Shown: piece by piece, positions 40,068 to 56,335 of the stretch | Numbering within the stretch: the stretch's first letter is position 1 | Layout: each line of letters begins with the position of its first letter | NCBI GenBank assembly: GCA_034669505.1 | Contig: JAXDNJ010000031.1 | Location: 6,421-70,420 of the forward strand | Length of the DNA: 64,000 nucleotides | Direction of reading: 5' to 3' | Origin: Methylobacteriaceae bacterium | Lineage (GTDB): Bacteria > Pseudomonadota > Alphaproteobacteria > Rhizobiales > Beijerinckiaceae | The notes under the pieces: generated by a model | Told to the model about the DNA's origin: nothing | Database searches by the model: none | The model's input: the letters and a program-made list of their open reading frames with translations, nothing else | Program-made: the position numbers and the translations under genes

Positions 40068-40351
40068 AACTTCGATTATCGCGCCGAGCGACTTCCGACC
40101 TTCACGAAATCATCGACTACCTGAACATGCACAATCCCGGCGCGGCGAAGCGCGTGCGTGCCGCTCTCGACGCTGCTCTTAGCATTCTGACAAGCTTTCC
40201 TGCCCTCGGTGTCGTGCAACAACGCGACGTCCGCAAATACATCATGCCCCGTTTTCCTTATCTAATCTACTATTCGGTCGCTCAGCGCGAGCAGGAAATT
40301 CGGATCATCACCATTCGCCACGCCGCACGACGGCCTTTCCTCACCCCCTAA
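40064..40351 (+). CDS. Type II toxin, RelE/ParE family
   Basis: 95 aa. The pattern SRRATSDLHEIIDYL...PYLIYYSVAQREQEIRIITIRHAARRP is typical of ParE. Confidence 0.85.
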   Translation: MKLRLSRRATSDLHEIIDYLNMHNPGAAKRVRAALDAALSILTSFPALGVVQQRDVRKYIMPRFPYLIYYSVAQREQEIRIITIRHAARRPFLTP

Positions 40352-41078
40352 CCAGCATTTCATCGAGCGAGTAGCCGGCGCCGCGCACCGTGCGGATCGG
40401 ATCCTTCTCGCGGCCACGCACGAGCGCTTTGCGCAAGCGGCCGACGTGCACGTCAACCGTGCGCTCGTCGATCTCCGCCGACATGCCCCAGACGCTATCG
40501 AGAAGCTGGCCGCGCGAAAACACGCGGCCGGGCTTCTCCATCAGATGTTCCAGCAGGCGAAATTCCGTCGGCCCGAGATGAATCTCGCGTCCTGCGCGGC
40601 GCAGGCGCTTGGTCTCGCGATCGAGCTCCAGGTCGCCCGCAACGAGCTGCCCCGCGATCCGCTCGGGCTTGGCGCGGCGCAATAGCGCTTTCACCCGCGC
40701 CATCAGCTCCGGCACCGAGAAGGGCTTCACGACATAATCGTCGGCTCCGACCGAAAGCCCGCGCACGCGCTCAGCCTCTTCGCCGCGTGCCGTCAGCATG
40801 ATGACGGGCAGGGTGCGCGTTGTCTCGCGTGCGCGCAAACGCCGGCAGATTTCGAGGCCCGATACGCCGGGAAGCATCCAATCGAGGATGAGGAGATCGG
40901 GTGGGTCCTCCTCCAGCTTCAGCTCCGCCTCGTCGCCGCGCTCGACCCGTTCGACGATAAAACCCTCGGCTTCGAGATTGTAGGAAAGAAGCAGCGACAA
41001 CGCCGCCTCATCCTCGACGACGAGAACGCGCGGCGCAGTGTTGGTCGAGCTTCGTTGCGTTGCCCGTGCTTGGTTCAT
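40341..41078 (-). CDS. phoB: Phosphate regulon response regulator PhoB
   Basis: REC domain plus OmpR/PhoB winged helix. It is adjacent to phoU and the pst genes. Confidence 0.95.
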   Translation of the reverse strand: MNQARATQRSSTNTAPRVLVVEDEAALSLLLSYNLEAEGFIVERVERGDEAELKLEEDPPDLLILDWMLPGVSGLEICRRLRARETTRTLPVIMLTARGEEAERVRGLSVGADDYVVKPFSVPELMARVKALLRRAKPERIAGQLVAGDLELDRETKRLRRAGREIHLGPTEFRLLEHLMEKPGRVFSRGQLLDSVWGMSAEIDERTVDVHVGRLRKALVRGREKDPIRTVRGAGYSLDEMLVRG

Positions 41079-41087
41079 CGCACCACC

Positions 41088-41795
41088 TTATAAGGATTCC
41101 GCCGGCTCGAATGCCGTCTTGCCTTTCGGCCTTTCGACCGGCAGCGGTTCGCCGGTGACGAGGAACACAACCGTCTCGGCGATATTCGTCGTGTGATCGC
41201 CGATCCGCTCGATGTTCTTCGAGCAAAAAAGCAGATGCGTGCAAAAGGAAATGTTGCGCGGATCTTCCATCATGAACGTGAGGAGATCGCGGAATACCGA
41301 ATCTTCAAGCGCATCGAGTTCCGCGTCGCGGCTCCAGACTTCACGCGCCCGTTCGACGTCGCGCTGCGCGTAGGCGTCGAGCACGTCCTTCAACTGCATC
41401 GCCGCAACATCGTGCATCGACTTGAGGCCGACGATGGCCCGCGGCAGCCGCGCCTCCGCGGCGATTTTCGTGGTGCGCTTGGCGATATTCTTGGCGAGAT
41501 CGCCGACGCGTTCGAGATCGCCCGAAATGCGGATCGCCGCGACGCATTCGCGCAAGTCGATCGCCATGGGTTGCCGGCGCGCGATGGTCAGTACGGCACT
41601 CTCCTCGACTTCCCTCTGCAGCATGTCGAGACGCGGATCGCTGGCAACAACGCGGCGGGCCATATCCACGTCGAGATCGACAAGCGCATCCATCGCTTCG
41701 GACAGCATCTTCTCCGCGAGTCCGCCCATCTCGGCGATGCGTCGGCCAAGCGATTCGAGCTCGCGGTCGTAAGATTTGACGATGTGGTCCGGCAT
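41088..41795 (-). CDS. phoU: Phosphate signalling regulator PhoU
   Basis: Two PhoU repeats with the motifs ERVGDLAKNIA and ERIGDHTTNIA. Confidence 0.95.
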   Translation of the reverse strand: MPDHIVKSYDRELESLGRRIAEMGGLAEKMLSEAMDALVDLDVDMARRVVASDPRLDMLQREVEESAVLTIARRQPMAIDLRECVAAIRISGDLERVGDLAKNIAKRTTKIAAEARLPRAIVGLKSMHDVAAMQLKDVLDAYAQRDVERAREVWSRDAELDALEDSVFRDLLTFMMEDPRNISFCTHLLFCSKNIERIGDHTTNIAETVVFLVTGEPLPVERPKGKTAFEPAESL

Positions 41796-41819
41796 AGCGG
41801 TGTCCTCTTTGGCTCGGCC

Positions 41820-42626
41820 TCAGCCGAAGCGGCCGGTGATGTAATCCTGGGTCTGTTTCTTCTCAGGCGACGTGAACACGCGGCGCGTCCGGTCAAACTC
41901 GATCAGTTCGCCGAGATACATGAAGGCAGTGTACTCGGAGACGCGCGCAGCCTGCTGCATGTTATGCGTCACGATAGCGATGGTGTAGCGCTCGGACAAA
42001 TCGTCGATGAGCTCTTCGATCTTGGCGGTCGAGATCGGATCGAGTGCCGAGGCCGGCTCGTCGAAGAGGATCACCTCCGGATGGATCGCGACCGTGCGCG
42101 CGATACACAGGCGCTGCTGCTGCCCGCCTGAAAGGCTGAGGCCGCTTGCGTTCAGTTTGTCTTTGACTTCATTCCACAGCGCCGCGCCGCGCAATGCCGC
42201 CTCGACCCGATGGTCGAGTTCGCTCCTGCTGACCTTCTCATAGAGCCTGATCCCGAAGGCGATATTCTCATAGATCGACATCGGAAAGGGCGTCGGCTTC
42301 TGGAAAACCATGCCGACGCGCGCGCGCAAGAGATTGGCATCGAGATCGGGCGAAAGGATATTCTCGCCGTCGAGCAGGACCTCGCCCTCAGCACGCTGGT
42401 TCGGGTAGAGATCGTACATGCGGTTCAGGACGCGCAGAAGCGTCGATTTCCCGCATCCCGACGGTCCGATGAACGCGGTCACCTCATTGCGGTGGAGCGG
42501 CAGCGAGACCGATTTCAGCGCCTGCGTCTCACCGTAGAAAAAGTCGAGATTGCGGATCGCGATCTTTTCCAGCGCATCGGCACTCGCCGCACTGGGCGTG
42601 ACCGGAGCATCCATGACGAGGCTCAT
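41820..42626 (-). CDS. pstB: Phosphate ABC transporter ATP-binding protein
   Basis: Walker [10 protein letters not shown] and signature LSGGQQQR. The start is ATG 42626 (MSLVMDAP). Confidence 0.96.
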
Positions 42627-43465
42627 TTTGTCGTCCTTTGCCTTGCAAGAACACGCGCCAAAATCGAGAGAGCGAGCACGGCGAAGGTGATGATCAGCGC
42701 CCCGGTCCAGGCAAGCTGCTGCCAATCCTTGTACGGACTCAACGCAAACTGGAAGATGACCGCCGGCAGGCTTGCCATCGGGGCATTGAGGTTGGTGCTC
42801 CAGAACTGGTTGTTCAGCGCGGTGAACAGGAGCGGCGCCGTCTCGCCGCTGATCCGCGCGACGGCAAGCAGCACGCCAGTAATCAGGCCGGCCCGCGCCG
42901 CGCGGTAGGCAATTCGGGTGATCACATAAGAGCGCGGCAGGCCGAGTGCGGTTGCCGCTTCACGTAGAGGTCCCGGCACCAGAAGCAGCATGTCCTCGGT
43001 GGTACGCACGACAACCGGCACCACAATGACGGCAAGCGATAGCGCACCGGCAAGACCCGAGAAGTGGCCCATGCGCACGACCACCACTTCATAGATGAAG
43101 AGGCCGATGACGATCGACGGCGCGCTGAGCAGGATATCGTTGATGAAACGCACCACTGTGGTGAGCCGCGAGGAGCGGCCGTATTCCGCCATGTAGGTGC
43201 CGGCAAGCATGCCGAGCGGGGCGCCGATCGCGAGGCCGAGCGCCGTCATGACCAGGCTGCCCATGATCGGGTTGAGCAGTCCCCCGGCGGCGCCGGGCGG
43301 CGGCGTCATCTCGATGAAAACGGCGGGTGTCAGTCCGGCCAATCCATTCCAAAGTAGCGCGCCCAGGATCAGCACGAGAAAGGCAAGCCCAAACGCGGAC
43401 GCGGCAATGCACAGCCCCATTACAATGGCGTTGTTGCGACGGCGCGTTTGGTAAACCCCCGCCAC
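42623..43465 (-). CDS. pstA: Phosphate ABC transporter permease PstA
   Basis: Multi-TM permease containing REAATALG. Position in the operon fits. Confidence 0.95.
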
Positions 43466-43468
43466 GGC

Positions 43469-44527
43469 TCAGGCTCCCGCTTGGTGTTGAACGCGCATCA
43501 GCATCAGCCGTGAGGCGGCAAGCACGATGAAGGTGATAACAAAGAGAATGAGCCCAAGCTCGATCAATGCGGACGTATAGATATCGCCAACGGCTTCGGT
43601 GAATTCATTGGCGATCGTCGCCGAGATCGTCGTCCCCGGCGCGAGCAGCGAACCCGCAATTCTGTGCGCGTTGCCGATCACAAAGGTAACCGCCATCGTC
43701 TCGCCAAGCGCGCGGCCGAGACCGAGCATGATGCCGCCGATCACGCCGAGGCGCGTGTAAGGAATGACGACGCGGCGGACGACCTCCCACGTCGTGCAGC
43801 CGATTCCGAAAGCCGCTTCCTTGAGCACCGGCGGGACGGTCTCGAACACGTCGCGCGAAATCGAGGTGATAAACGGCAACACCATAATCGCCAGAATGAA
43901 ACTCGCTGTAAATATGCCGATGCCATAGGGCGGGCCGGCAAACAGCGTCGACAGAACCGGGATCGGCCCGAAAATCGCGATCAGCGCCGGCTCGACATAT
44001 TGCTGCACGAACGGCGCAAAAATGAACAGGCCCCAAATGCCGTAGATGATGGAGGGGATGCCGGCCAAAAGCTCGATGGCGATGCCGATCGGCCGGCGTA
44101 AGGGTCGCGGACAGAGTTCGGTCAAGAAGATCGCGATCCCGAGTCCGACGGGAATGGCGATGATCATCGCGAGAACAGAGGTGACAAGCGTTCCGTAAAC
44201 TGCAGCGAGTGCGCCGAACTTGTCGGTCACCGGATTCCACGATTGGCTGGCGAGGAAGCTGAAACCAAACTCCCGGATCGCCGGTATCGAGCCGAGCACG
44301 AGTGACAGGATCACACCGCCCAATATGACGAGAACCGCGGCCGCCGCGCATTGCGTCAGCAGGCGAAAGCCGCGGTCGGTCAGCCGCAACCGCCGCAGAA
44401 CTGTGCGGCGGTCGCGTTCTATCTGGCGCGTTTGCGGCACATCTGCGATTGCTGCGGCATCGCTCACACCGGCGTCCCCATTCGTTGAACTGCTTGATTC
44501 GGCCGGCATCTGCTCGGGCCAGATCAA
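43469..44527 (-). CDS. pstC: Phosphate ABC transporter permease PstC
   Basis: Multi-TM permease containing KEAAFGIGCTTWE. Position in the operon fits. Confidence 0.95.
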   Translation of the reverse strand: MIWPEQMPAESSSSTNGDAGVSDAAAIADVPQTRQIERDRRTVLRRLRLTDRGFRLLTQCAAAAVLVILGGVILSLVLGSIPAIREFGFSFLASQSWNPVTDKFGALAAVYGTLVTSVLAMIIAIPVGLGIAIFLTELCPRPLRRPIGIAIELLAGIPSIIYGIWGLFIFAPFVQQYVEPALIAIFGPIPVLSTLFAGPPYGIGIFTASFILAIMVLPFITSISRDVFETVPPVLKEAAFGIGCTTWEVVRRVVIPYTRLGVIGGIMLGLGRALGETMAVTFVIGNAHRIAGSLLAPGTTISATIANEFTEAVGDIYTSALIELGLILFVITFIVLAASRLMLMRVQHQAGA

Positions 44528-44536
44528 AGCCTTGAC

Positions 44537-45577
44537 TTACATTAAAGGCTTGCCGCTCGAATCCTTGATGTCACTCGCCCATGTCTTTTTGATCAGCGCA
44601 ACGACATTTTCCGGCATCTCGATATAATCGAGATCCTCGGCCATTTTGCCGCCCTTGGTGAAGGCCCAGTCGAAGAATTTGAGCGCTTCCTTCGCTGCGG
44701 CGGGATCCTGCGGCTGTTTCGGCATCAGGATGAACGTCGCGGCGGTGATCGGCCAAGACTCGGCGCCGGGTTCATCGGTGAGAATCTGATAGAATCCCGG
44801 CGCATTGGCCCAATCTGCATTCGCCGCCGCGGCCTGGAAACTAGGTGAGGTGGGCGACACCACCTCGCCATCATGATTTTTCATGTTGGAGTAGGTGAGC
44901 TTGTTCTGCTTCGCATAGGCATATTCGACGTACCCGATGGAGCCCTTGGTGTTCGCGACGTTGTTGGCCACACCTTCATTGCCCTTAGCGCCGATGCCGA
45001 TCGGCCACTCGACCGCGGTATTTTGACCGACATTCGCCTTCCATTCCGGGCTCACCTTCGAGAGATAGTTGGTGAAGTTGAACGTCGTGCCGGATCCGTC
45101 GGAGCGATGCACGACCGCAATCGCGCTCGATGGTAATTTGGCATTCGGGTTCAGCGCCTTGATTGCCGCATCATCCCACGTCTTGATCGTGCCCATGAAA
45201 ATCTTGGCGAGCGCCGCTCCGTCAAGCGCCAGATCGCCCGGCTTGACGCCATCGAGATTGACGACAGGCACGATGCCGCCCATCACCATCGGCCATTGCG
45301 CAAGACCGTCCTTCTGCAGCTCGTCCGCTTTCAGCGGCGCGTCCGTCGCGCCGAACGTGACGGTCTTCGCCTTGATCTGCTTGATGCCACCGCCGGAGCC
45401 TATCGACTGGTAGTTCAGCCCGTTGCCGGTCTCTTTCTTATAGGCGTCCGCCCACTTCGCATAAATCGGATAGGGGAAGGTTGCGCCAGCGCCGGATATG
45501 TCGGCAGCGTAAACGGCGACACTCGCGGATGCCGCGAAAGCCGCCACAAGCGCGGCGCGTAAGATCGTCTTCGTCAT
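44537..45577 (-). CDS. pstS: Phosphate ABC transporter substrate-binding protein PstS
   Basis: Start ATG 45577 ([24 protein letters not shown]). GAGATFPYP and HRSDGSGTT motifs. Confidence 0.95.
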
Positions 45578-45668
45578 GAAGGCCTCTTTGGAGACTCGTG
45601 TGCGGGAAGCCGCCGAGGAGCTAAGGCGTGGCGGCTGGAGCAACCTAGTGTCGGCACGCGAGGCTTTT

Positions 45669-45697
45669 ACGACACGCAGATGACACTTCGTTGACAG
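45669..45697 (-). promoter_or_regulatory. Pho box: three TGTCA-like direct repeats at 11-bp spacing upstream of pstS
   Basis: The minus strand reads CTGTCAacgaaGTGTCATctgcGTGTCGT, about 90 nt upstream of the pstS start. This matches the PhoB-binding architecture. Confidence 0.6.
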
Positions 45698-45716
45698 CGT
45701 AAGCTCTGGGAAAGCA

Positions 45717-46766
45717 TCAGGATTCCCGACCCTGCGCTTTGCCTAACGGCAGAATCGCCGAAAAGGTCGCACCTTGGCCGCGGCCTGACTCGATCGTCAG
45801 CCGTCCGCGATGGCGCACCAGGATGTGCTTGACGATGGCGAGGCCGAGACCGGTACCGCCTTTGGTGCGGCTCTCGCCGGCATCGACGCGATAGAAGCGT
45901 TCCGTCAGCCGCGGCACATGTTCCGGCGCTATTCCCGGTCCGTGATCGCGCACGATCAGAACACCGTCGCCGCCACGCTCCGCGACCGTAACTTCGACCG
46001 GCTTGTCAGATGCGCCGTACTTGATCGCGTTCTCGATAAGATTCTCGGCAACGCGCACGAGCTCGTCGCGATCGCCACGCACGAGGACGGGTTCTCCTGC
46101 GTAAACTGCGATTTGCCTTTCGTTTTCCTCAGCCATCTGCGCAAGCGTATCGACCACGTGACCGGCGATTAACGAGAGATCGACCATCGCCGTCGGCTGC
46201 AAATGCGCGCTTTGCTCGATCCGTGACAGCGACAGGAGATCGTCGACGAGCCGCGACATGCGGCGCGCCTGCTCGCCCATGATCGCGAGAAAACGCTCGC
46301 GCGCGATAGGATCATTGCGCGCCGAGCCCTGCAACGTTTCCACAAACCCGAGCACCGACGTCAGCGGGGTGCGCAGCTCGTGGCTGACATTGGCGACGAA
46401 ATCAACGCGCATCCGCTCGACGCGCCGGGTTTCGCTCAGGTCGCGCAGCGTCAGCATCACCATGCGCGGCACGCCGGCAAGATCGATCGGTGCGATATAG
46501 ACGTCGAAGAGGCGCTCGACCGGAACACGCTCGAGCCACTGCACCTTTTGCGGCTTGCGCTCGCCAAAGGCGCGCGTAATCGCATCAAGGATGTCAGGCG
46601 AGCGCAAGCCACGCACCAGGAGCTCGCCCGGCCGCAACGAGGGCAGAAGCGAAGCGACGGCGGGATTGGCGGCGACGAGCCGGAAATCGCTGCCGACGAT
46701 GAGCGCCGCGTCCGGCACCGCCCGAAGCAGCGCGTCGACGACCTCGATCGGGAGCTGGTCGGGCAT
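45717..46766 (-). CDS. phoR: Phosphate regulon sensor histidine kinase PhoR (soluble, PAS-HisKA-HATPase)
   Basis: H-box [14 protein letters not shown] box ENAIKY and G boxes DHGPGI and GTGLGLAIV. No TM helix was seen. The start is uncertain (46766, 46817 or 46880). Confidence 0.88.
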
Positions 46767-46927
46767 GTCTTGAGCCCCCTTCCCCCGGTCAGGCGATCCG
46801 GAGAGGGCGGCGGCCATCCCGAGCCTTGCATCCCCGGCACGGGATAGCGATATCGGCGGCATCGGACCTATCGATTGCAAGAGGAGAGCACAAGGTGGAC
46901 GCGAACGTCGATGCTTCCGGACCGGAG

Positions 46928-48883
46928 ATGGAGACCCAAGGCCGGCCGCGCCAACCCCAAAGCCATGCGTTCCAGGCGGACGTTTCCCGGCTCCTGCACC
47001 TCATGGTGCATTCGGTCTATTCCGATCGCGACATTTTCCTGCGCGAGCTGATCTCGAACGGCGCCGACGCCTGCGAGAAACTGCGCCATGAGGCGCTGAC
47101 CAATCCCGAGCTCCTGGCGGACTCGCCTGGCTTTGAGATCACGATCGGCCTCGACAAGGACAAGCGCCAGCTGAGTGTCGAGGATAACGGCATCGGCATG
47201 TCGCGCGAGGAATTGGCGAGCCAGCTCGGCACGATCGCCAGCTCCGGCACGCGGGCGTTCCTGGAGAAACTCGGGGGCGACGAGCAATCCAAGATCGCAG
47301 CGGACCTCATCGGTCAGTTCGGCATCGGCTTCTATTCCGTTTTCATGGTCGCCGATAAAGTCGAGGTCGACACACGGCGCGCCGGGACGGACGAGGCCTG
47401 GCGCTGGACCTCCGACGGCAAGGGCACCTATGCGCTCGAACCGCTTCCGCTGGAAGACGCGCCGGCGCGCGGCACGCGCGTGCGCCTGCATCTGAACGAG
47501 CATGCGACCGACTATCTCCAGTCCTGGAAGGTGCAGAGCATCGTCCGCGAATATTCGAGCGGCATCGCCGTGCCGATCGCACTGACCGAGGCGAAGGACC
47601 AGGAATCGGAATCGAAGGACAAAGAATCCAAGGAAGATTCCAAAGAAGGTGAAAGCAAAGAGCCGAAACGCATCAGCGAGGGCAGCGCGCTCTGGGCGCG
47701 TCCGAAAGATAAGATCGAAGAGAGCGAGTACACCGAGTTCTATCGCAGCCTCGCCGGCCAGTTCGACGAGCCGCTCGCGACCATCCATTGGCGCGCCGAA
47801 GGGCGGCACGAATATATTGTGCTTGCCTTCATCCCGGGCTCGCGGCCGCTCGATCTGTTCGATCCCGCGCGCAAAGGCCACAACAAACTTTATGTCCGCC
47901 GCGTCCTGATCTCGCGCGACTCCGATCTCTTGCCCGGCTGGCTGCGCTTTGTGCGGCTGGTTGTCGACTCCGCCGACCTGCCGCTCAACGTCTCGCGCGA
48001 AATGGTGCAGAAGAGTCCGGTCTTCGGCGCGATCGGCAAAGCAGTGACGAACCGCATCCTGCAGGAGGTCGTGAAACTTGCGGACAAAGAGCCGGAGAAG
48101 TTCGCCAAGCTCTGGGAGGCGTTCGGGCCGGTTCTCAAGGAAGGGCTCTACGAAGACCCCGAGCGGCGCGATCAGCTGTTTGAGATCGCGCGGTTTGCGA
48201 CGTCAACCGATCCGGAAGGCAAGCGCACGCTGAGGGAGTACGTCGCCTCACTGCGCGAGAACCAGACCGCGATCTATTACTTGACCGGCGAGGACGCGAA
48301 GCGGCTTGCCTCAAGCCCGCAGCTCGAAGGTTTCCGCGCCCGCGGCATTGAAGTGCTGCTTCTCTCCGATCCGGTCGATACGTTTTGGGTCTCGACCGCG
48401 GTCGGCTATGACGGCAAGCCGTTCAAATCGGTGACGCAGGGCAGCGTCGATATCTCATCTATCGCGATGGCCGAAGGCCAGGAGGCGCCTGCCTCGAGCG
48501 ATATCAAGCCCGAAGTGGCGACGCTGCTCGCGCTGATGAAACAAACGATCGGCGATGTCGAGGACGTGCGTGCGTCCGAACGCCTGTCGGACAGCCCCGT
48601 CTGTCTGATCGCGCCGGAGCATGGCCCCGATCGCCGGCTCGCGCGCATTCTAGCCGAGCACGGGCGGCTTGGCGACATGCCGAAGCCGGTGCTCGAAGTG
48701 AATCCGCGCCATGCGCTCATCGAGTCGCTCGCGCGTCACATCAACGATTCGGACAAGACCTGGCTCGAAGACACGTTTTGGCTGCTTTATGAGATGGCGC
48801 GTGTCAGCGATGGCGAGAGCCCGTCCGATCCGGCTGGTTTTGCCGGGCGGCTGACACGGGCGCTGACGAAGCTCGCGGCGTGA
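46928..48883 (+). CDS. htpG: Molecular chaperone HtpG (Hsp90)
   Basis: FQADVSRLLHLMVHSVYSDRDIFLRELISNGADACEKLR, GQFGIGFYS and a charged linker. The start is ATG 46928. Confidence 0.96.
   Translation: METQGRPRQPQSHAFQADVSRLLHLMVHSVYSDRDIFLRELISNGADACEKLRHEALTNPELLADSPGFEITIGLDKDKRQLSVEDNGIGMSREELASQLGTIASSGTRAFLEKLGGDEQSKIAADLIGQFGIGFYSVFMVADKVEVDTRRAGTDEAWRWTSDGKGTYALEPLPLEDAPARGTRVRLHLNEHATDYLQSWKVQSIVREYSSGIAVPIALTEAKDQESESKDKESKEDSKEGESKEPKRISEGSALWARPKDKIEESEYTEFYRSLAGQFDEPLATIHWRAEGRHEYIVLAFIPGSRPLDLFDPARKGHNKLYVRRVLISRDSDLLPGWLRFVRLVVDSADLPLNVSREMVQKSPVFGAIGKAVTNRILQEVVKLADKEPEKFAKLWEAFGPVLKEGLYEDPERRDQLFEIARFATSTDPEGKRTLREYVASLRENQTAIYYLTGEDAKRLASSPQLEGFRARGIEVLLLSDPVDTFWVSTAVGYDGKPFKSVTQGSVDISSIAMAEGQEAPASSDIKPEVATLLALMKQTIGDVEDVRASERLSDSPVCLIAPEHGPDRRLARILAEHGRLGDMPKPVLEVNPRHALIESLARHINDSDKTWLEDTFWLLYEMARVSDGESPSDPAGFAGRLTRALTKLAA
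48785..48883 (+). repeat. Functional copy of the htpG 3'-terminal ~100 nt that recurs at 51007 and 52030
   Basis: Hand alignment; see the findings. Confidence 0.8.
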
Positions 48884-48898
48884 GGCGATCGGTCGGCG

Positions 48899-50914
48899 CT
48901 AGGTGCGCGTCGGCCAATGCCTGTCGCGGAACCAAGTGCGATAGTCCGAGGACATCGTGGCGCGCTGCGCTTGCGGCGCGTGCCGCTTGCAAGTCGCCGC
49001 TTCCTCACTGTTTTCCAAGGCACCCCAACGTATCTCGGCGCAGTCGTTCGGGTTATACGCCATTTCAAGGTCTGCTGCCCGTTCGATCACGTCCTTGAGA
49101 GACAATGTCCATTGCGAGCCGTCGCTGCGAGTATAGGAGAACTTACGCGAGGCAAGCTCAGTTGCGAGCACATCCCGTAACTCGCGCTTCACGTTCTCAA
49201 TGTTCTTGCCTCCCGGCGTCGCGTATCGGTCTGAGCGCCGCGCGAAGCGCTCAGGAAAATTCCGCAGGACATCGATCGCGATCAAAAGACGGAAATCGCG
49301 CGCCGGCGTGGAATAGTCTTCCCATGCGCCGCTGGTCTGGAAGATCGACGCGCCGTTCGGCATCGCGGTAACTGCAGCCTGCTTGTCCTGATATTTTCGT
49401 CCATTCTCGACCGAGGTGACGCGCGTCTTCACCTGCTCGTTGAGGCTGGTAATCGCATCCGTCATCGCCCGCACCGGATCCAGCGGCTCGGGCGACATCA
49501 CGTCATCCATGCGATCGTAGAAATCCTCGGCACTCATGTGCGCCTGTTCGAGGGAAAAGTCGCCGTAGTGCGGGTTTCTGCCGATTTCGGCATTGGTCAG
49601 CCGCCGCAACGGGCCATTTTTATCGCCGACGATCGGCCGGAAGTGCTTGAAGCCGGGCGTGCCGAGCCCGGGATTGTGCACGAACAGGAAGTTGCCGCGC
49701 CAGAAACGCTTGCGCGTAATCGACCCGTCGGGCTCGGCGTCGACGGCGAGAAAAACCCCGGGCGTCCCATCCAACTCCGGCACGCGATGCACCAGCATCA
49801 GCACGTGGCCGTAGGGGTCGGCATATACGGTTCCCGGGCGCAGCGCCTTTTGCGTCAGCGGGACGCTGTAGAAATCGGTGTTGTCGTCGTTCGCCGCGAC
49901 CCGCACCGCGCCGCTATGGACGACGTCGCCGACATCGCGCAGATATTCTGCGAATGTCGCCGGACGCTTCGGCTTCGGTGGCGGCGGCACGGCCGGACTT
50001 ACTGGCGCATCGGCCGGCTGCGCCTGCGCAAACAGCCCGAGAAAGTTTGCAGCCGGGGCGGCGGACGCGACCGCGACCGTGTTCGACGCCAAGTTCGACG
50101 CGACATCCTGTTCGGGCGGCGGGGCCGGACGCGTCGTCTCGGGATGCTCGATGTCGAACCATTGGTAACATGTGGGCGCCTTGCCGCCGCTGCCGCGCGA
50201 GCAATTCGCATATCCGAATGGTAGACCCATCTTGAAAGCGAAATAGGCGCGCAGGAAGTAGACGAAGTCGGCGCAATCGGGACGCAAGCTCAGCGTCATG
50301 GTGTCTTCGCCGCGACCGAGATAGTTGAACAGGAAATTGCGCGATTGATCGCGCAGCACTTCATGCCACACCTTCCACGATAGGTCCTGGTCGGGTGGGG
50401 CGTCGAAAAGCTTCTCGATCCATGCCGAGAACAACGATTCCGTTGTGCTGTTCCAGCTGTTGCGCACCTGCCAGATATGGCCGGCCGGCGTTCCCGGGGA
50501 CGCGGGCCTGCCCGCATTCACGACAATTTCGCGGGTGATGTTGCCGCATCCGGCGACCGCGTGGTCGAGCGCCAGATTTGCATGCCACGTCCCGGCGGCC
50601 GGCGCGGCGATCTCGGCGAACCAGGAATAAGGCCCGCCGCCGTGCCGCTCCGAGGATCTTGCCGCGATGCTGCCGTTGGGCGCGACCAGCGAGAGCGTCC
50701 CGCCGAGTGGCTTTTCCGCAACGACCATGACGCGCAACGGCGCGCCTTTCCACGGCGCAACCGGCGAGGGCAGAACCGTGAGATCGGCCGCCTCTCCGCA
50801 GGTGGCGGATAAAGCCGCCGCCGGCGAGTCTGTTGCCGATGCAGGCGAGACGACAAATCCGGCGACCGGTAACAAAGTCGCCGCGGCGACGGCAAACCAG
50901 CGTGCGCGAAGCAT
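48899..50914 (-). CDS. Large exported hypothetical protein (671 aa), possible transglutaminase-like Cys-His-Asp core
   Basis: Signal peptide MLRARWFAVAAATLLPVAGFVVSPASA. PDCADFVYFLRAYFAFKMGLPFGY (Cys214), then PYGHVLMLV (His370), then FLAVDAEPD (Asp392). A Pro/Ala-rich insert lies between the Cys and His blocks. Confidence 0.75.
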   Translation of the reverse strand: MLRARWFAVAAATLLPVAGFVVSPASATDSPAAALSATCGEAADLTVLPSPVAPWKGAPLRVMVVAEKPLGGTLSLVAPNGSIAARSSERHGGGPYSWFAEIAAPAAGTWHANLALDHAVAGCGNITREIVVNAGRPASPGTPAGHIWQVRNSWNSTTESLFSAWIEKLFDAPPDQDLSWKVWHEVLRDQSRNFLFNYLGRGEDTMTLSLRPDCADFVYFLRAYFAFKMGLPFGYANCSRGSGGKAPTCYQWFDIEHPETTRPAPPPEQDVASNLASNTVAVASAAPAANFLGLFAQAQPADAPVSPAVPPPPKPKRPATFAEYLRDVGDVVHSGAVRVAANDDNTDFYSVPLTQKALRPGTVYADPYGHVLMLVHRVPELDGTPGVFLAVDAEPDGSITRKRFWRGNFLFVHNPGLGTPGFKHFRPIVGDKNGPLRRLTNAEIGRNPHYGDFSLEQAHMSAEDFYDRMDDVMSPEPLDPVRAMTDAITSLNEQVKTRVTSVENGRKYQDKQAAVTAMPNGASIFQTSGAWEDYSTPARDFRLLIAIDVLRNFPERFARRSDRYATPGGKNIENVKRELRDVLATELASRKFSYTRSDGSQWTLSLKDVIERAADLEMAYNPNDCAEIRWGALENSEEAATCKRHAPQAQRATMSSDYRTWFRDRHWPTRT

Positions 50915-51006
50915 TGAGTATCCCTGTGGGTAGCGCTTTGACCGGCATTCAAACCAGCCAATGTGGCCGGTTACGAGCAGATTTGCGGCCGGGACGGGGA
51001 ATGGCG

Positions 51007-51042
51007 CGTTACGAGATGGCGCGCGTCAGCGACGCCGAGAGC
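51007..51042 (+). repeat. Short remnant of the htpG 3' end (encodes YEMARVSDAES-stop)
   Basis: 36 nt with 5 mismatches to 48785-48820 and 3 mismatches to 52030-52065 (hand count). Confidence 0.6.
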
Positions 51043-51329
51043 TAAGCGACGCGAGCCGCACGTGGGAATGCTTCGCGCCGAAACGCATCTATTCCGGCGA
51101 GCCACAGACGCTCGGCGTCCGTGGCATTAAGCGCCGCGCCCACTATGGCTTCCGCGATCAGTTTTCGCGTGTGCAAGGCCCGCTGGGGAATTGCTGCCGG
51201 ATGACCCGCGGCAACAAGCGCGTTCCACGCTGTTTTCAGCGCGCTGTCGAGGCTCGCGTCACTGAATCGCAGCCTTGCGGCTTGAAGTTCTTTCGTTCCC
51301 ATTGTGGACGTGCCCTCGTCGACACTCAC
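51042..51329 (-). CDS. Hypothetical protein (95 aa)
   Basis: ORF only. Its stop abuts the htpG remnant at 51042. Confidence 0.4.
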   Translation of the reverse strand: MSVDEGTSTMGTKELQAARLRFSDASLDSALKTAWNALVAAGHPAAIPQRALHTRKLIAEAIVGAALNATDAERLWLAGIDAFRREAFPRAARVA

Positions 51330-51475
51330 GGGGAGAGGTCACGCGACTCAGCCGCTTGGACACAAAATCGCCGAACTTGGTTCAGGAAGTCTTAATGGGT
51401 AGCAGCCGCCGCGTGGGGCGGCGGACGGAAGTCGCCTTCATACGCTTCGAATATCTGGACGGAAGGAACAGTCCG

Positions 51476-51973
51476 ATGGGTAAGCTCGCGACCTGCTTGT
51501 GGTTCGACCATGGCGAGGCCCGCAAGGCGGCCGACTTCTATGCCGCTACATTTCCGGATACTCATGTGGGCGGAGCGCATGCCGCGGCCTCCGATTACCC
51601 CGGTGGCGCCCAGGGGAACGAGCTCGTCGTCGAGTTTACGCTCCTCGGCCAACCGTTTGTTGGCCTGAACGGTGGTCCGAACTTCTCGCCCAACGAAGCC
51701 GTGAGCTTCCAGGTAACGACGGAAGATCAGGCGGAGACCGATCGTTACTGGGATGCGATCGTCGGGAATGGCGGCAAGGAAAGCCAATGCGGCTGGTGCA
51801 AGGACCGCTGGGGCTTCTCCTGGCAGATCGTGCCGCGCGCCTTGATGGCTGCGATGAGCGATCCCGATCGCGCCGCCGCCAAACGCGCGATGGACGCCAT
51901 GATGAAGATGCGCAAGATCGATATTGCGGCGATCGAGGCCGCGCGAGCAGGCGACGAAGTGCCTGACGCGTGA
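51476..51973 (+). CDS. VOC superfamily protein, PhnB / 3-demethylubiquinone-9 3-methyltransferase-domain type
   Basis: MGKLATCLWFDHGEARKAADFYAATFPDT and QCGWCKDRWGFSWQIVP. GGAAGGA lies upstream of ATG 51476. Confidence 0.85.
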   Translation: MGKLATCLWFDHGEARKAADFYAATFPDTHVGGAHAAASDYPGGAQGNELVVEFTLLGQPFVGLNGGPNFSPNEAVSFQVTTEDQAETDRYWDAIVGNGGKESQCGWCKDRWGFSWQIVPRALMAAMSDPDRAAAKRAMDAMMKMRKIDIAAIEAARAGDEVPDA

Positions 51974-52029
51974 TTCCGTTTCGGGTGAGGCAACGAGCAG
52001 TTTGCCGTGCCCTCACCTAGCTGAGACAG

Positions 52030-52129
52030 CTCTACGAGATGGCGCGCGTCAGCGACGGCGAGAGCCCGTCCGATCCTGCCGGATTTGCCGGGCGTTTTGA
52101 AGCGCGCGCTGACGAAGCTTGCGGCGTGA
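52030..52129 (+). repeat. Decayed duplicate of the htpG 3' end, including its TGA (displaced gene end, att-like)
   Basis: Versus 48785-48883: 66 nt with 8 mismatches, then a ~10-nt divergent patch with a 1-nt length difference, then 25 nt with 1 mismatch ending in TGA. It encodes LYEMARVSDGESPSDPAGFAGR and then goes out of frame. Confidence 0.85.
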
Positions 52130-52346
52130 GGGGAGCCGCGGGAGGCGGGAAGAGCCGGCCGCGTTCGACAATCGCTATCGCGGCGCCGATCACGAGGCCG
52201 GTTTAACGCCGCTCGACTGTGCGATGATGCGCTTTAGTTCTGGGTCGCCGACCAGTCCGAATCTTCCAAACCAACCCGGGGGACCGCCAGCTCCGGTGCC
52301 TAGTCACCAAGGCGAACGGCGTGCATCTCGTCCGTCACTCAAACCA

Positions 52347-52679
52347 TTAATTTCTACAGGCAGCTTTTGCCCAGCGAAAACCGCATTCTCCTCCGGAACC
52401 ACCATAACCAGGAGTGATTCTGCATGGCCCAGCCCCGCATAAAGCGCTGCAAACCACCTGTGGACTGAAGCCGCTCGCCCCGCCACTGTAGCAGGCAAAA
52501 TGGCGAAATGGCGGAGACCGGGGATATGGATTGTAAGCCGGAGTACACCCAGCATTGCCCCAGCAAACATAAAACTCCGGATAGATAATGTCCTTGGGCT
52601 TTATCGGGTCAGCGGCGAATGTCGGGCCCGCAAGCGAGACTGTAGCTGAGATTAAAGCTAAGGCTTGCCAGTGCCGCAT
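52347..52679 (-). CDS. Small secreted Cys-rich hypothetical protein (110 aa, 8 Cys)
   Basis: GGAGG lies 7 nt upstream of ATG 52679. Signal peptide MRHWQALALISATVSLAGPTFA. Confidence 0.5.
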   Translation of the reverse strand: MRHWQALALISATVSLAGPTFAADPIKPKDIIYPEFYVCWGNAGCTPAYNPYPRSPPFRHFACYSGGASGFSPQVVCSALCGAGPCRITPGYGGSGGECGFRWAKAACRN

Positions 52680-52699
52680 ATTCCCGCCTCCACAGTACC

Positions 52700-53015
52700 T
52701 TTGAGGGAAAAGAACGTATCGACCAGTTCCGATCGGTGCAAGACAGGACCTCGTGGCCGGCATTGTGCGCCGTTCGAGCTTCTAGAGCGAGGCGCATTTG
52801 GCGAAGGTCAGCTTCACGACGTTCTTGTAGGTCTCGCCCGGTTCTGATCCCGGCGTGCTCCCACACGGCACCCCTCGCCACTTCCAATCCTCGACCACGT
52901 CCGGGTCGGCCTCTTTGATGAGAGTCCGGACTCCAGCCAGCGTTTCGCCCCGCCAATCGCTCAGTTCCTCGATTCGCGCATCGATCAGCTGAGAGGGAGA
53001 GTCTCCGCGTTGCAC
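52700..53015 (-). pseudogene. DUF1801 (YdhG-like) domain protein, multiply frameshifted
   Basis: One frame reads IDARIEELSDWRGETLAGVRTLIKEADPDVVEDWKWRGVP. A second frame continues VWEHAGI. The first frame resumes with GETYKNVVKLTFAKCASL and ends in a premature stop. Confidence 0.6.
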
Positions 53016-53297
53016 TTCTCGCTTTCTTCATCAGCGGGTCGCTCGCGGTCACATGACGTAATTGCTCGTCAGCATTTTGGCAGCACTGGACGGGCCGCCT
53101 TGGCGGGCGAGTGATGCACTCCGAAGTAGACCCCTTCTGCGCCAATTCCTCGGCGGAGAGACAAAATCGATCAACTGCAACAGTGCGTCGGAAGCCTACA
53201 GCGTCTGCGACCCCGACGAGAATGGCCGAAGGAGAGGAATTCGATTTTCATATTTTTGATAGGAGAATGCCTCCGGGTGTCGCTCTTCTATGTTTCG

Positions 53298-54725
53298 TCA
53301 CAAGATCTCCATTGTGATAACTTGCTCAGACGAAACTTGGCGCGCAATATCAAAATCTGGTTCGTCCCTGCGAAATTCGGCAAAGAAAAAATCCACAAGT
53401 GTCATCAGGTCGCTAGCATCCGCCGCCAACATGGCATCAATCACCGTTCTTCCCGTGGTCTGGACTCGGAGTATCGCCCTTCGCACCGCCAGTTCGTTGT
53501 TTCCGAATCCGGTCGCCACACGAACACTGAGGTGTTTCTCTAGCTGTTCCCGCGTTCCAATCAACCGATCATTCGGGAAGTCGACACGGATAGGTGCCGA
53601 AACCAGATCGTCGACATGATCTGCATACAAGTCTGGCCTCACATAGACATCTGTAGCCTCGAGGAAGTGCTTCGATAGCAACTCTTGAGCCTGGATAAAG
53701 CTGCCAAATGTTTGAGACAAATCTCCAAACTCGACTGGCAACGCCTTAAGTTTTTGCAAAAGTTCACGATTTCTCTGCAGTGCATCTCGAATCGACTCTG
53801 CAACAGGAGAACTGCTCAACTGTTCAGACCATCGCTCAAACAGGGATGCCACCGGTCTGTCAAATCTTGGCAGCCCTTCCTTCTCGAACAATGCAAAGAG
53901 TTTCGCAAAACGGGTCGTTGGGCAAGCTTCCCATCCCTCAACGGAGTAATTACCTAGAAGACTCCAACTAATTGCCGCGCTCAACAGCGCAATATCTATC
54001 AACTGTCCCTGCCGCTGGCAGAGAGCATACCAAGCCCTCAGAGGGAGCGTGTAGGCTGTCTTGTTTGCAAGGAGATAGTTTAAAAACAATTCAGAATGTT
54101 TGATACCAAAAACCGTGAACACGTTGTTGGCTTGCACCGCAATCGCAGAACCCTCAAAGAGATGATAAGGCTGATACACAATACCTGTTTCGTTCGGAGG
54201 CGCGGACACGAAGTCTTTTATGCGTCCATAGGCCTTCTCCGTCTCGACGAGAGCGCGGGTCCCTTCAGGGTCAAGATCGCAGTCGAATGAGATTGCTTCC
54301 CGGCGCAGCACCCTCGACCACTGATGGGCTAGAATGGTTCGCTCATTGTGTTGCATTCTTCGCCATTTAGGTAGCGGCACGGGTATGACGGAATTTTTCG
54401 CACGCAGCCGGCCGATTACCTGCACGCCGTTTACTGCGGCAAGCAGCCGTAGTCGAAGAATATGGTTACCATAGGGACTTAAGATAAAATCGTGGAAATG
54501 CCGCACTTCGTGCAACATTACTGTCCCAATCGAGAATGTATCAAAAGCTTCGTCAACACTTTCTTTAAGAGCCATGTTTCCAATACGGATCACCTCTTCG
54601 GGATCGCGATCCTGCGCATGGAATCGCCCAAACAGGTCCCAACTCTTAGGCCAGAAACGTAAGGTCACACCCAGGAATGTCGAGTCGAAACCGCCATAAT
54701 CATCTTGAATGATTGCCGTGTTCAT
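53298..54725 (-). CDS. Hypothetical 475-aa protein with HEXXH zinc-metallopeptidase motif
   Basis: The long ORF lies in a clearly AT-richer segment. VMLHEVRHFHD contains HEVRH (aa 72-76, nt 54498-54512). A candidate third-ligand Glu is in YHLFEGSA (aa 191). The ATGA start overlaps the stop of the upstream small gene. Confidence 0.8.
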   Translation of the reverse strand: MNTAIIQDDYGGFDSTFLGVTLRFWPKSWDLFGRFHAQDRDPEEVIRIGNMALKESVDEAFDTFSIGTVMLHEVRHFHDFILSPYGNHILRLRLLAAVNGVQVIGRLRAKNSVIPVPLPKWRRMQHNERTILAHQWSRVLRREAISFDCDLDPEGTRALVETEKAYGRIKDFVSAPPNETGIVYQPYHLFEGSAIAVQANNVFTVFGIKHSELFLNYLLANKTAYTLPLRAWYALCQRQGQLIDIALLSAAISWSLLGNYSVEGWEACPTTRFAKLFALFEKEGLPRFDRPVASLFERWSEQLSSSPVAESIRDALQRNRELLQKLKALPVEFGDLSQTFGSFIQAQELLSKHFLEATDVYVRPDLYADHVDDLVSAPIRVDFPNDRLIGTREQLEKHLSVRVATGFGNNELAVRRAILRVQTTGRTVIDAMLAADASDLMTLVDFFFAEFRRDEPDFDIARQVSSEQVITMEIL

Positions 54726-55081
54726 TTTGCTGCTTTGACGATATGCGTCAAAGCGTCTTGTACTTCTTCGGCTGTGAGGTCATCAGACGAGATCAGCTCA
54801 ATTCTACGCATCGGTGTTTGAATGATAATTCGTCTACCTCTGCCTCCTCTCAGTAGGTCAAAAATTTTCTTGGCCAGTATGGTGACCCCGACGGCGCCTT
54901 TAGTAATGGCCACCCAAGACGCGACCTCGGCGAGGCCGAACTTAAGGTTGGTTGGATCCTTTTCTATTCCGTACCTCTCAACCTGTATTTCTTCAGCGAA
55001 TTGCTTCGAATATTCGTTAAGCTCGTCCATCTGCTCCTTAGCGCCTAATACTTTGATTTGAACTTCATCCATGACCGTCAT
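54722..55081 (-). CDS. Small protein (119 aa) resembling EACC1 (effector-associated constant component 1)
   Basis: AGGAGA lies about 7 nt upstream of ATG 55081. The layout is an acidic N-terminus (QMDELNEY), a central hydrophobic segment AEVASWVAITKGAVGVTILAKKIF, the basic patch RGGRGRR, then IIIQTPMRRIELISSDDLTAEEVQDAL. Only the last 360 nt of track ORF 54722-56365 are real. Confidence 0.7.
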   Translation of the reverse strand: MTVMDEVQIKVLGAKEQMDELNEYSKQFAEEIQVERYGIEKDPTNLKFGLAEVASWVAITKGAVGVTILAKKIFDLLRGGRGRRIIIQTPMRRIELISSDDLTAEEVQDALTHIVKAAK

Positions 55082-55477
55082 AATCAGGTCTCCTGTATGC
55101 CTTGCGAGGCACCAAATTGGACCAACCGTTAGCAAACTCCAAGCGTCGGGTGGCTTAGCAGGTCGTGGTCTGCAACGCGTAACCGGGTTAGCCGTGTCCT
55201 TGCTCCTCAACTCACGGGCAGGAAAGGACGCACCGACTGCCACGGAAGGCCACCTTGACATAGTCGTGAAGCAATGGACGCCGAGGAGCCTGCCCTCGCC
55301 ATCGACTCCGCAAGCGGCGAGTTTGACCGCCTGGTGGAGGCCGGGGACGGTCACCACGATGAGTGCGCGATGCGACGCCAGCCTCCTGTTTCCAGTCGGG
55401 ATGGCCGCGGTATCGGCCTGCACGACGCCTCGCCGCGATGATAAAGCTGTCAGGTGAAACAAGCAGACAATTCCGCG

Positions 55478-56335
55478 ATGTCCCCCGCTCTCACCTATGC
55501 CGACGCGCACCACCGCGCCGCCGCTTTGCTGGCAGACGCCGGCATCGAGACGCCGAAGCGCGATGCGCGCGTGCTGCTCTGCCAAGCGGCTGATATCGAT
55601 CACGCCGCGCTGTTGCGCGATCCCGATGCGCGGCTCGGCGAGGAGGCGGCGGCGCGGCTGCAAGCCTTTGTCGAACGGCGGCTCCAGCGCGAGCCGGTGT
55701 CGCGCATTCTTGGCCGGCGCGAATTCTGGGATCTCTCGCTGCGCATCACCCCCGACGTGCTCGACCCGCGTGCCGATACGGAGACGCTGGTTGCCGCCGC
55801 GCTCGAGACGCTGAGAGATCGTCGCAGCGACCCGCTGCGCATCCTCGATCTCGGCACCGGCTCCGGCGCACTGCTTTGCGCGCTGCTGAGTGAATTTCCG
55901 CGCGCCTTGGGGATCGGCGTGGATCAACAGGAACCTGCCTGCCGGATCGCGCGGGAAAATCTCGCCGCTTGCGGCCTTGCCGGCCGCGGCGCCGTTCTCC
56001 GCGGCGACTGGGGCGCGGCGCTCGCCGGCGGCTTCGATCTCGTCGTTGCGAATCCGCCCTACATCGCCTCCGGCGCAATCGGGGCGCTCGCCCCCGAAGT
56101 CCGCGATCACGATCCCCGTGCCGCCCTCGACGGCGGCCCGGATGGGCTCGCCGCCTATCGCGCACTGGCCGCCGATCTCGGCCGCCTCTCGGCGCCGGAC
56201 GGAGTGGCCATCGTCGAAATCGGCCACGACCAGGCCGAATCGGCGCCCGCCTGCTTCCGGCAGGCCGGCTGGGGCTCGATCTCGCTGAAGCGCGACCTCG
56301 AAAACCAGCCGCGCGCGCTGATTTTGCGGCGATGA
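55478..56335 (+). CDS. prmC: Peptide chain release factor N5-glutamine methyltransferase
   Basis: SAM motif ILDLGTGSGAL and catalytic VVANPPYI. The start is ATG 55478 or GTG 55454. Confidence 0.93.
   Translation: MSPALTYADAHHRAAALLADAGIETPKRDARVLLCQAADIDHAALLRDPDARLGEEAAARLQAFVERRLQREPVSRILGRREFWDLSLRITPDVLDPRADTETLVAAALETLRDRRSDPLRILDLGTGSGALLCALLSEFPRALGIGVDQQEPACRIARENLAACGLAGRGAVLRGDWGAALAGGFDLVVANPPYIASGAIGALAPEVRDHDPRAALDGGPDGLAAYRALAADLGRLSAPDGVAIVEIGHDQAESAPACFRQAGWGSISLKRDLENQPRALILRR

Follow-up and report, generated by a model that had tools for sequence, protein, structure and literature searches.

The stretch of DNA analysed here, referred to as the window, is the 64,000-nucleotide (nt) segment at positions 6,421–70,420 of contig JAXDNJ010000031.1 from a Methylobacteriaceae bacterium; positions below are counted from its first letter. 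It carries htpG, the 3′ end of which is present in three copies, one in the gene itself and two between the gene and its downstream neighbour prmC, with accessory genes (here called cargo) placed among them. The target gene htpG (46895–48883, + strand) is intact and encodes 662 amino acids (aa) with an HSP90 match in Pfam (E 4e-103); the protein is 100% identical to P0001, a ‘molecular chaperone HtpG’ from a Methylobacteriaceae metagenome-assembled genome (MAG). The called start is the GTG at 46895, and a longer open reading frame (ORF) starting with TTG would give 685 aa. The upstream neighbours in the window are phoR and the pst genes. On the other side, prmC (55454–56335, + strand; Pfam domains PrmC_N and MTS) is the conserved right-hand border of a variable interval, and homology with relatives resumes at about 55462.

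Three copies of the htpG 3′ end

The working 3′ end of htpG (tail A, 48784–48885, + strand, stop codon at 48881–48883) is followed by copy B (51009–51042, + strand), which holds the first 33–34 nt of the tail (YEMARVSDAES) and ends at GAGAGC, and by copy C (52029–52131, + strand), a nearly full displaced tail with its former stop at 52127–52129. A blastn search of the htpG 3′ region against the window returns exactly two additional copies: copy C matches over 52029–52134 (91/106 identical, 1 gap, E 2e-29) and copy B over 51002–51042 (36/42 identical, E 3e-7), all other matches in the 64 kb being at chance level (17 nt or less). According to a repeat search of the whole 64 kb, the tail family (D1–D3) is the sole strong direct repeat, with three copies of 33 nt at 88–100% identity in D1 and 66 nt at 89% identity in D3. 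A profile of 13 functional tails (nhmmer) also recovers copy C (E 4e-28) and copy B (E 6e-5). These searches confirm the three copies reported by the first-pass annotation, which was made from the letters of the window alone, and the gene content that it gave between them is as stated: a 671-aa ORF, a 95-aa ORF and a PhnB-like gene (PF06983). The alternative that it had named, a generic intergenic repeat, is not borne out, the tail repeat having no other copies in the 64 kb.

Copy C contains a 1-nt insertion and a small scrambled patch. Copy B agrees with the start of copy C at 97% identity and with the tail of the relative L087 at 33/34 positions. The homology of the 671-aa gene block with L083 and L084 extends to ...GGGAATGGCGCG at 51008; since these bases belong to that block, copy B starts at 51009/51010, and the earlier placement at 51007 is corrected accordingly. 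The three copies had been said to begin at the same point; this stands within the window, where the starts differ by about 4 nt at most, but not across relatives, where they range from -76 to -120 (see below). The codons tac, cgc and gac, which are common to copies B and C and had been taken as a sign that the present tail was imported, are the clade consensus and lose that meaning, although the import itself is supported otherwise. Concerning other signals, a promoter and terminator scan of the tail copies found nothing, and identity at third codon positions in the tail is not clearly above the htpG gene average, so that no strong embedded constraint is indicated. Short ‘hypothetical proteins’ are called over displaced tails both in the window (52039–52206 and 50833–51045) and elsewhere (P0121–P0129), e.g. 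MLRQLYEMARVS...; such short ORFs, for instance 52039–52206, are annotation artefacts and not genes.

The htpG–prmC interval across relatives

The closest HtpG proteins (P0002–P0018, 86–90% identical) come from uncultured Methylobacteriaceae/Beijerinckiaceae MAGs and soil metagenomes, and their loci were compared for gene content. A metagenome scan with the C-terminal 85 aa of HtpG added at least two useful short contigs. A more distant set comprises 80 htpG loci (HtpG at most 64% identical) among the matches listed in a genome-collection scan with full-length HtpG. Synteny is kept in the relatives both upstream (pst-pho genes) and downstream (prmC, DUF4167), and everything between htpG and prmC varies. 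In the following, genes without a family name are given by the length of their product in aa and a minus sign marks the minus strand. Reading from the htpG tail to prmC, the window contains 671(-), copy B, 95(-), phnB, copy C, 138(-), a DUF1801 fragment, 475(-) and 124(-). L081 and L094 contain the 289-aa gene, a displaced tail and more genes; L082 has phnB, 379, TIR, 155, DUF1330(-) and YafQ-RelB. phnB, 669(-), 289 and more genes are found in L083, and phnB, DUF1330(-), 666(-), 289 and more genes in L084/85. L087 has an isochorismatase gene, a displaced tail, 289 and DUF1330(-); L093 has 289 and then five other genes, and L088 two other genes and then 671(-). L091/L092 contain nothing in the interval: prmC stands directly after htpG. 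The same htpG–prmC adjacency is present in the more distant family members L063, L004 and L065.

The empty site is found in one lineage and differing cargo sets in nine others. Because htpG stands directly before prmC in L091/L092, the whole of 48886–55461 (6.6 kb) is an insert, with copies B and C inside it. The first-pass annotation had proposed an empty site in which htpG is joined to the sequence after 52129; an empty site does exist, but it joins htpG to prmC. In this uncultured Methylobacteriaceae/Beijerinckiaceae clade, the htpG–prmC junction acts as a hotspot of gene insertion. In most relatives phnB is the first gene after htpG, and in L082, L083, L084/85 and L086 it lies 12–35 nt past the htpG stop. 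The phnB gene and the 671-aa-type gene occur in reverse order in relatives, where no tails flank them, and the division of the window cargo into two discrete element blocks is given up for this reason. No second copies of cargo genes were found in the gene-content comparison of the window and its relatives.

Origin of the tail alleles

Tail A and copy C differ by 13 substitutions, 11 of which are at third codon positions. The corresponding values are 5/5 mismatches for tail A and the L095 remnant, 9/12 for tail A and the L096 remnant, and 9/13 for the working tail of L087 and its own remnant; these ratios resemble those of functional-vs-functional pairs. Duplication in situ followed by decay of one copy predicts about 48% of the changes at third positions (p = 0.008 for A vs C). 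Owing to this third-position excess, the copies are to be seen as different functional alleles from different lineages, which diverged while both were coding. On the codon-position evidence, the working tail and the remnants clearly present themselves as xenologous alleles and not as decayed local duplicates.

The affinities of the alleles differ also. The tail of L082 matches copy C at 94% identity, and L082 is the closest relative of the upstream part of the window htpG as well (88%), whereas the last 279 nt or so of htpG, tail A included, are closest to the L081 group (90–92%). The switch of nearest relative at about -279 in the window is marginal by a max-chi2 permutation (p about 0.05; post hoc Fisher 0.004), and a similar switch in L087 has its start near -522 (p about 0.016). 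Both hint that the imported tract may start upstream of the duplicated segment. The htpG gene as a whole is a mosaic, in which the nearest relative switches several times along 46895–48883 (compared with L081–L094), apparently indicating frequent homologous exchange among members of the clade. Judging by these alignments, tail A is probably the latest allele to have been imported. Copies B and C each once formed the working end of htpG and have been displaced, and at least two tail-replacing insertions have taken place here, the newest adjoining the gene. The third-position excess and the contrast between an L082-like copy C and an L081-like tail A thus uphold the earlier proposal of an imported present tail and displaced older ends.

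Displaced tails in relatives and their junctions

Besides the window, the profile search finds significant extra tail copies in L087 (E 8e-27) and L081 (E 3e-14). Altogether, four more arrangements have displaced tails of their own, located beside the isochorismatase gene, the 289-aa gene, a MacB-type transporter gene and the phnB flank. The orthologue in L081 of the extra L087 copy with its 55-nt leader is the working tail with its leader, and the 289-aa gene is next in both; therefore, the isochorismatase gene was inserted with a new tail into an ‘htpG-289’ arrangement. In L081/L094 the displaced tail is located after the 289-aa gene. L095 has a 78-nt remnant, 92.6% identical to tail A, between the MacB-type transporter gene and a TIR-TPR gene, upstream of prmC. 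The metagenome contig L096 has the same junction of phnB flank and tail as the window (86% identity); what the two have in common runs from the phnB 3′ flank through the remnant to about 20 nt past its end, after which the downstream DNA differs. Nine short called ORFs in other metagenome contigs also encode tail remnants (search with the last 43 HtpG residues); six short ORFs in other contigs count as cases additional to the arrangements just described. Together with the empty site in L091/L092, these independent tail duplications round other cargo bear out the claim of serial insertion at the htpG end. Among the 80 listed loci with HtpG at most 64% identical, no significant copy of the own tail is found downstream of htpG; there are three marginal matches of 28–44 nt only (E 2e-4 to 7e-4), one of them 3.3 kb downstream in L011.

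Counted in nt before the end of the stop codon, the remnants start at -120 in L087, at -110 in L081/L094, at -103 in copy C, L096 and P0121–P0124 (one junction type), at -99 in copy B, at about -87 in P0127 (inferred from its peptide) and at -76 in L095. Measured in this way, no htpG-tail remnant of less than 76 nt or more than 120 nt was found. The six junction types are spread over 45 nt, so that the single att (attachment site) boundary proposed at first does not hold. At the other end, the remnants extend to the former stop plus 2 nt (TGAGG) unless they were cut later; the exceptions are copy B, which ends after GAGAGC, and the L081 remnant. A segment of about 10 nt, around GACGGCGAGAGC, is common to all remnants. 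Two independent rearrangements break exactly after GAGAGC, one of them truncating copy B and the other deleting 7 nt from the L087 remnant. Before the junction is reached, the cargo continues for 10 nt past the stop of the isochorismatase gene (L087), 31 nt past the stop of the 289-aa gene, 55 nt past that of phnB, 94 nt upstream of the start of the 671-aa gene and 299 nt past the MacB/FtsX gene of L095. The cargo-side flanks of the junctions have no sequence in common.

An imperfect palindrome of about 65 nt is found in the htpG tail (48797–48862 in the window; columns 34–98 of alignment A1), and the displaced-tail junctions cluster round its 5′ base. Its consensus hairpin has 31 pairs with two compensatory pairs among ten lineages and a covariation term of about 0. 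The compensatory changes are CG to UA in the window and CG to GC in L083, and other lineages break the palindrome. For single sequences the z-scores lie between -2.5 and +0.1, and the displaced remnants fold no better than shuffled sequences. The evidence for a structured RNA or DNA element in the tail is accordingly weak and inconsistent.

Search for recombinases and mobile elements

The first-pass annotation had stated that no integrase is left at the locus, and none was found in the window array or in the other large window ORFs scanned for recombinase families. It had also foreseen recombinase-bearing relatives with a mimic of the tail; these did not appear. Pfam families of integrases, resolvases and transposases are absent from the genes of 13 arrays (about 11 lineages), including the inserts nearest htpG, the search covering the fetched loci, which are a small sample. 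Collections of plasmids, phages and viral contigs contain no match to the tail. No IntI-like integrase gene adjoins htpG. Also, a full-text search of the literature returned no description of htpG as an integration site, in agreement with the earlier remark that it is not known as one.

Cargo of the window and other features

Cargo block 1 (48886–51008, - strand) consists of the 671-aa ORF (48899–50914), which has a signal-peptide-like start, and its 94-nt upstream region. The protein has no match in Pfam, NCBIfam, PADLOC, PHROGs or PDB; its gene is 82–85% identical in DNA to the 669- and 666-aa genes of L083 and L084, which are placed after phnB there. The 95-aa ORF (51042–51329, - strand), without a family match in Pfam, NCBIfam, PADLOC or PHROGs, lies inside a 420-nt stretch (51043–51462) that stands in place of the rest of copy B and has no blastn match in L081–L095. 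The phnB-like gene (51476–51973, + strand; PF06983, 165 aa, Pfam E 8e-46) is followed by a 55-nt 3′ flank (51974–52028, + strand), which carries a hairpin of the form GGTGAGGCA...TGCCCTCACC and abuts copy C.

The older cargo up to prmC (52132–55461, - strand) contains a 138-aa ORF (52347–52763, - strand), a 77-aa DUF1801 fragment (52782–53015, - strand), and the pair of a 475-aa ORF (53298–54725, - strand) with an HExxH motif (MLHEVRHFHD) and an overlapping 124-aa ORF (54722–55096, - strand). This region has no homology to the array of any compared relative, and within it Pfam matches the DUF1801 fragment alone. The fragment covers profile positions 2–44 of 85, just under the gathering score, and is probably a truncated pseudogene. 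The block at 53000–55200 has a low guanine–cytosine content (49–51% vs about 62% elsewhere). Neither the 475-aa nor the 124-aa ORF has a match in Pfam, NCBIfam, PADLOC or PDB, and PHROGs gives a single sub-threshold match (E 0.002) for the 124-aa ORF. The pair looks like a recently acquired two-gene module of unassigned function, possibly a defence system.

Among the relatives, the interval of L082 (13949–16342) contains a TIR_2/Y4lF protein and a YafQ-RelB toxin-antitoxin pair, and that of L095 (2922–5501) an 859-aa TIR-TPR protein; with such defence-type cargo the hotspot behaves like a small defence island. The commonest cargo of the interval is the 289-aa protein (L081 12023–12892; also L083, L084, L087, L089, L093 and L094), which starts with MAKFVIEPHFR, belongs to no Pfam family and is absent from the window; it is 93–99% identical between lineages, above the conservation of HtpG. 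Just upstream of prmC, L087 has a palindromic repeat (12090–12260) of the CCTCATCCTGAGG...CCTCAGGGTGAGGGG type, which is typical of intergenic repeat elements in Rhizobiales. In the empty-site lineage (L091 6480–7322, compared with 40341–46880 of the window) the phoR-pstSCAB-phoU-phoB cluster is missing and tsaD directly adjoins htpG, so that the upstream side of htpG has also been rearranged in the clade.

Discussion

The three copies of the htpG end are very probably the scars of serial, tail-replacing insertions from other lineages. The support for this consists of the empty site, the diversity of the cargo, the independent displaced tails beside different cargo, the coding-type divergence, the allele affinities, the variable junctions and the finding of no recombinase. 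Incoming DNA carrying its own htpG end and an adjacent accessory gene would have recombined with the resident gene, the old ends being pushed downstream. The most economical order for this window would have three steps. In the first, the phnB unit would have entered, giving working tail, phnB and old tail C; the phnB–C junction is old, since it is common to L096 and several remnant ORFs. The 671-aa gene would then have arrived with tail A, displacing the tail before phnB to form copy B. Finally, the 420-nt segment with the 95-aa ORF would have replaced the rest of copy B and a short spacer before phnB. As to mechanism, the left exchange may have taken place within htpG by ordinary homologous recombination, some hundreds of nt ahead of the tail, and the right-hand join may have fallen within the narrow zone 76–120 nt before the stop, beside the imperfect palindrome, presumably with no dedicated recombinase encoded in cis. 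Only inserts with a complete replacement tail would survive, because others would not leave htpG intact. We slightly favour such a homology-anchored mechanism over an integrase acting in trans and give it about an even chance of being correct.

Several observations weigh against this homology-anchored account of the insertions. The six junction types fall inside 45 nt of a detectable range of about 1,950 nt, which has a probability of about 4e-8 if starts were uniform; the clustering is tighter than expected of illegitimate joins and looks like site preference. The cargo ends 10–299 nt past gene boundaries, a pattern that looks like that of cassettes, and no truncated genes are seen beside the displaced tails at the five junctions with known cargo, among which the 299-nt stretch of L095 was unscreened. 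Remnants of the prmC 5′ end are absent from all arrays, and comparable remnants of any other gene from the 64-kb window. Also, the breakpoint tests are marginal in a gene that is mosaic throughout. Part of this is what site-specific integration with tandem accretion, the model of the first-pass annotation, would explain; in it, a tyrosine integrase, encoded elsewhere or lost, joins an attP site mimicking the htpG tail with an attB site in the last 100 nt or so of the gene, the cargo being integrase-less remnants like cis-mobilisable elements (CIMEs) or being mobilised in trans. The tails are confined to htpG, where they are repeated directly in a single orientation, the newest insert adjoins the gene and its tail is swapped for a foreign allele, the junction zone has sharp lower and upper limits, and the cargo ends are gene-precise; the segment around GACGGCGAGAGC leaves room for a core, the two independent breaks fall exactly after GAGAGC, and ICESt1-type elements are a documented case in which decayed elements accrete at a protein-gene 3′ end (PMC5704250). 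However, one attP family should give one boundary and the remnant starts differ by up to 44 nt, with no common sequence on the element side; no integrase is found in the arrays, not even in the inserts nearest htpG, and no mimic of the tail in the mobile-element collections. In addition, the nearest-relative switches in htpG begin about 180–400 nt upstream of the tail, and the displaced tails are decaying without keeping the hairpin. We take an integrase-mediated att mechanism to be the main rival, possible but less likely than the homology-anchored one.

The cassette-like aspect of the cargo has its own candidate, an integron-like array in which each cassette is a gene with a tail-like 3′ site, inserted by some recombinase just past the htpG stop, and the palindrome acts as attC. 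Cargo units are single genes with a tail copy 10–55 nt after the gene, the left end of the tails is variable and the right end constant (TGAGG), the unit of phnB flank and tail is common to the window and L096 despite different downstream DNA, and the predicted hairpin of about 65 nt has its two compensatory changes. Set against these, the hairpin is weak and inconsistent, and its 5′ arm is missing from the remnants of L095 and P0127 (the latter inferred from the peptide only); the cargo genes point in both directions, no IntI-like gene is seen, the tail copies are mutually homologous, unlike attC sites, and copy C is a resident-type (L082-like) allele, which fits a displaced tail rather than a cassette-borne site; we consider such an array very unlikely. 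A broader version, in which the last 100 nt or so of htpG are the attachment site of an undescribed cassette system and single genes tied to a tail copy are captured serially, seems unlikely to us as well; capture would be brought about either by a recombinase from another locus or by a structure-directed break at the tail palindrome. If true, part of a housekeeping gene would serve as the ‘attC’ of an integron-like array. Local tandem duplication of the htpG end and its neighbours, followed by deletions and decay without foreign DNA, agrees with repeats that are direct and close together and with the reverse order of phnB and the 671-aa gene in relatives, but the concentration of mismatches at third positions rejects it, unrelated genes lie between the copies in different lineages (e.g. 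isochorismatase in L087) and second copies of cargo genes were not found; it is highly improbable. Hardly any credence is left for chance similarity, a generic dispersed repeat or a diversity-generating retroelement. A GC-rich genome and a repeat of about 100 nt at a gene 3′ end might suggest them, yet the blastn E values, the lack of further copies in the 64 kb and the lack of significant own-tail copies among the 80 listed distant loci speak against chance or a repeat. The retroelement was rejected because the differences between A and C are mostly T/C at synonymous sites (third codon positions) and not adenine-specific, and no reverse transcriptase domain was found with Pfam.

Hotspots between core genes are the source of a large part of gene gain in bacteria, yet for those without mobile-element genes the way in which DNA enters is mostly inferred. 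In the displaced htpG ends the order, direction and foreign origin of the successive insertions are preserved as physical scars, which also show that a replacement gene end had to come with every insert. A narrow junction zone without a recombinase in cis fits neither textbook model, which makes the locus a compact test case for integrase-driven versus homology-driven insertion. The htpG–prmC interval in this clade is also a place to seek new accessory and defence genes.

Comparison with known systems

In Streptococcus thermophilus, integrative elements and CIMEs of the ICESt1/ICESt3 family accrete in tandem at the fda 3′ end (PMC5704250). As in that case, direct copies of the 3′ end of a protein gene bound integrase-less cargo at htpG, the newest insert adjoins the intact gene, and empty and differently filled sites are present in relatives. 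Unlike it, the 13 arrays studied here contain no integrase or conjugation genes that could be found, the htpG repeat is 76–120 nt long with a variable start instead of a fixed att core of about 27 bp, and the cargo is one or two genes. Concerning phage 21 and e14 at icd of Escherichia coli, the element brings a diverged replacement for the last 165 nt or so of the gene, which stays intact, and the old icd end remains downstream as a pseudo-copy with mostly synonymous differences; the integrase is encoded next to the site and there is one fixed crossover. The htpG locus has the replaced gene end and the displaced old end in common with icd, but not the integrase, none being found, nor the constant boundary. 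It resembles the fda/ICESt1 and icd cases and differs from both in two diagnostic traits, the recombinase and the fixed crossover.

Homology-facilitated illegitimate recombination and Campbell-type insertion-duplication work through one homologous anchor and need no dedicated recombinase; Campbell-type integration via a fragment with a gene 3′ end gives one intact gene and one 5′-truncated copy. On the favoured reading the htpG locus would likewise have foreign DNA anchored by one homologous segment, with an intact gene and a truncated copy; it departs from these processes in that the second junction falls repeatedly in a 45-nt zone and the cargo is gene-precise. With integron arrays it shares small, mostly single-gene units, each followed by a site of about 100 nt with dyad symmetry, and addition beside a fixed chromosomal point, whereas IntI is not seen, the sites are copies of coding sequence and not attC, the hairpin is weak and the orientation mixed. 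Hotspots and defence islands flanked by core genes are usually described without duplicated gene ends. Like them, the htpG–prmC junction is one interval with lineage-specific accessory genes, including TIR-domain proteins and toxin-antitoxin pairs in relatives; unlike the usual core-gene hotspots, its scars record the order and direction of insertion. Gene-end scars at integration hotspots are already known in outline, and htpG is a previously undescribed target among them.

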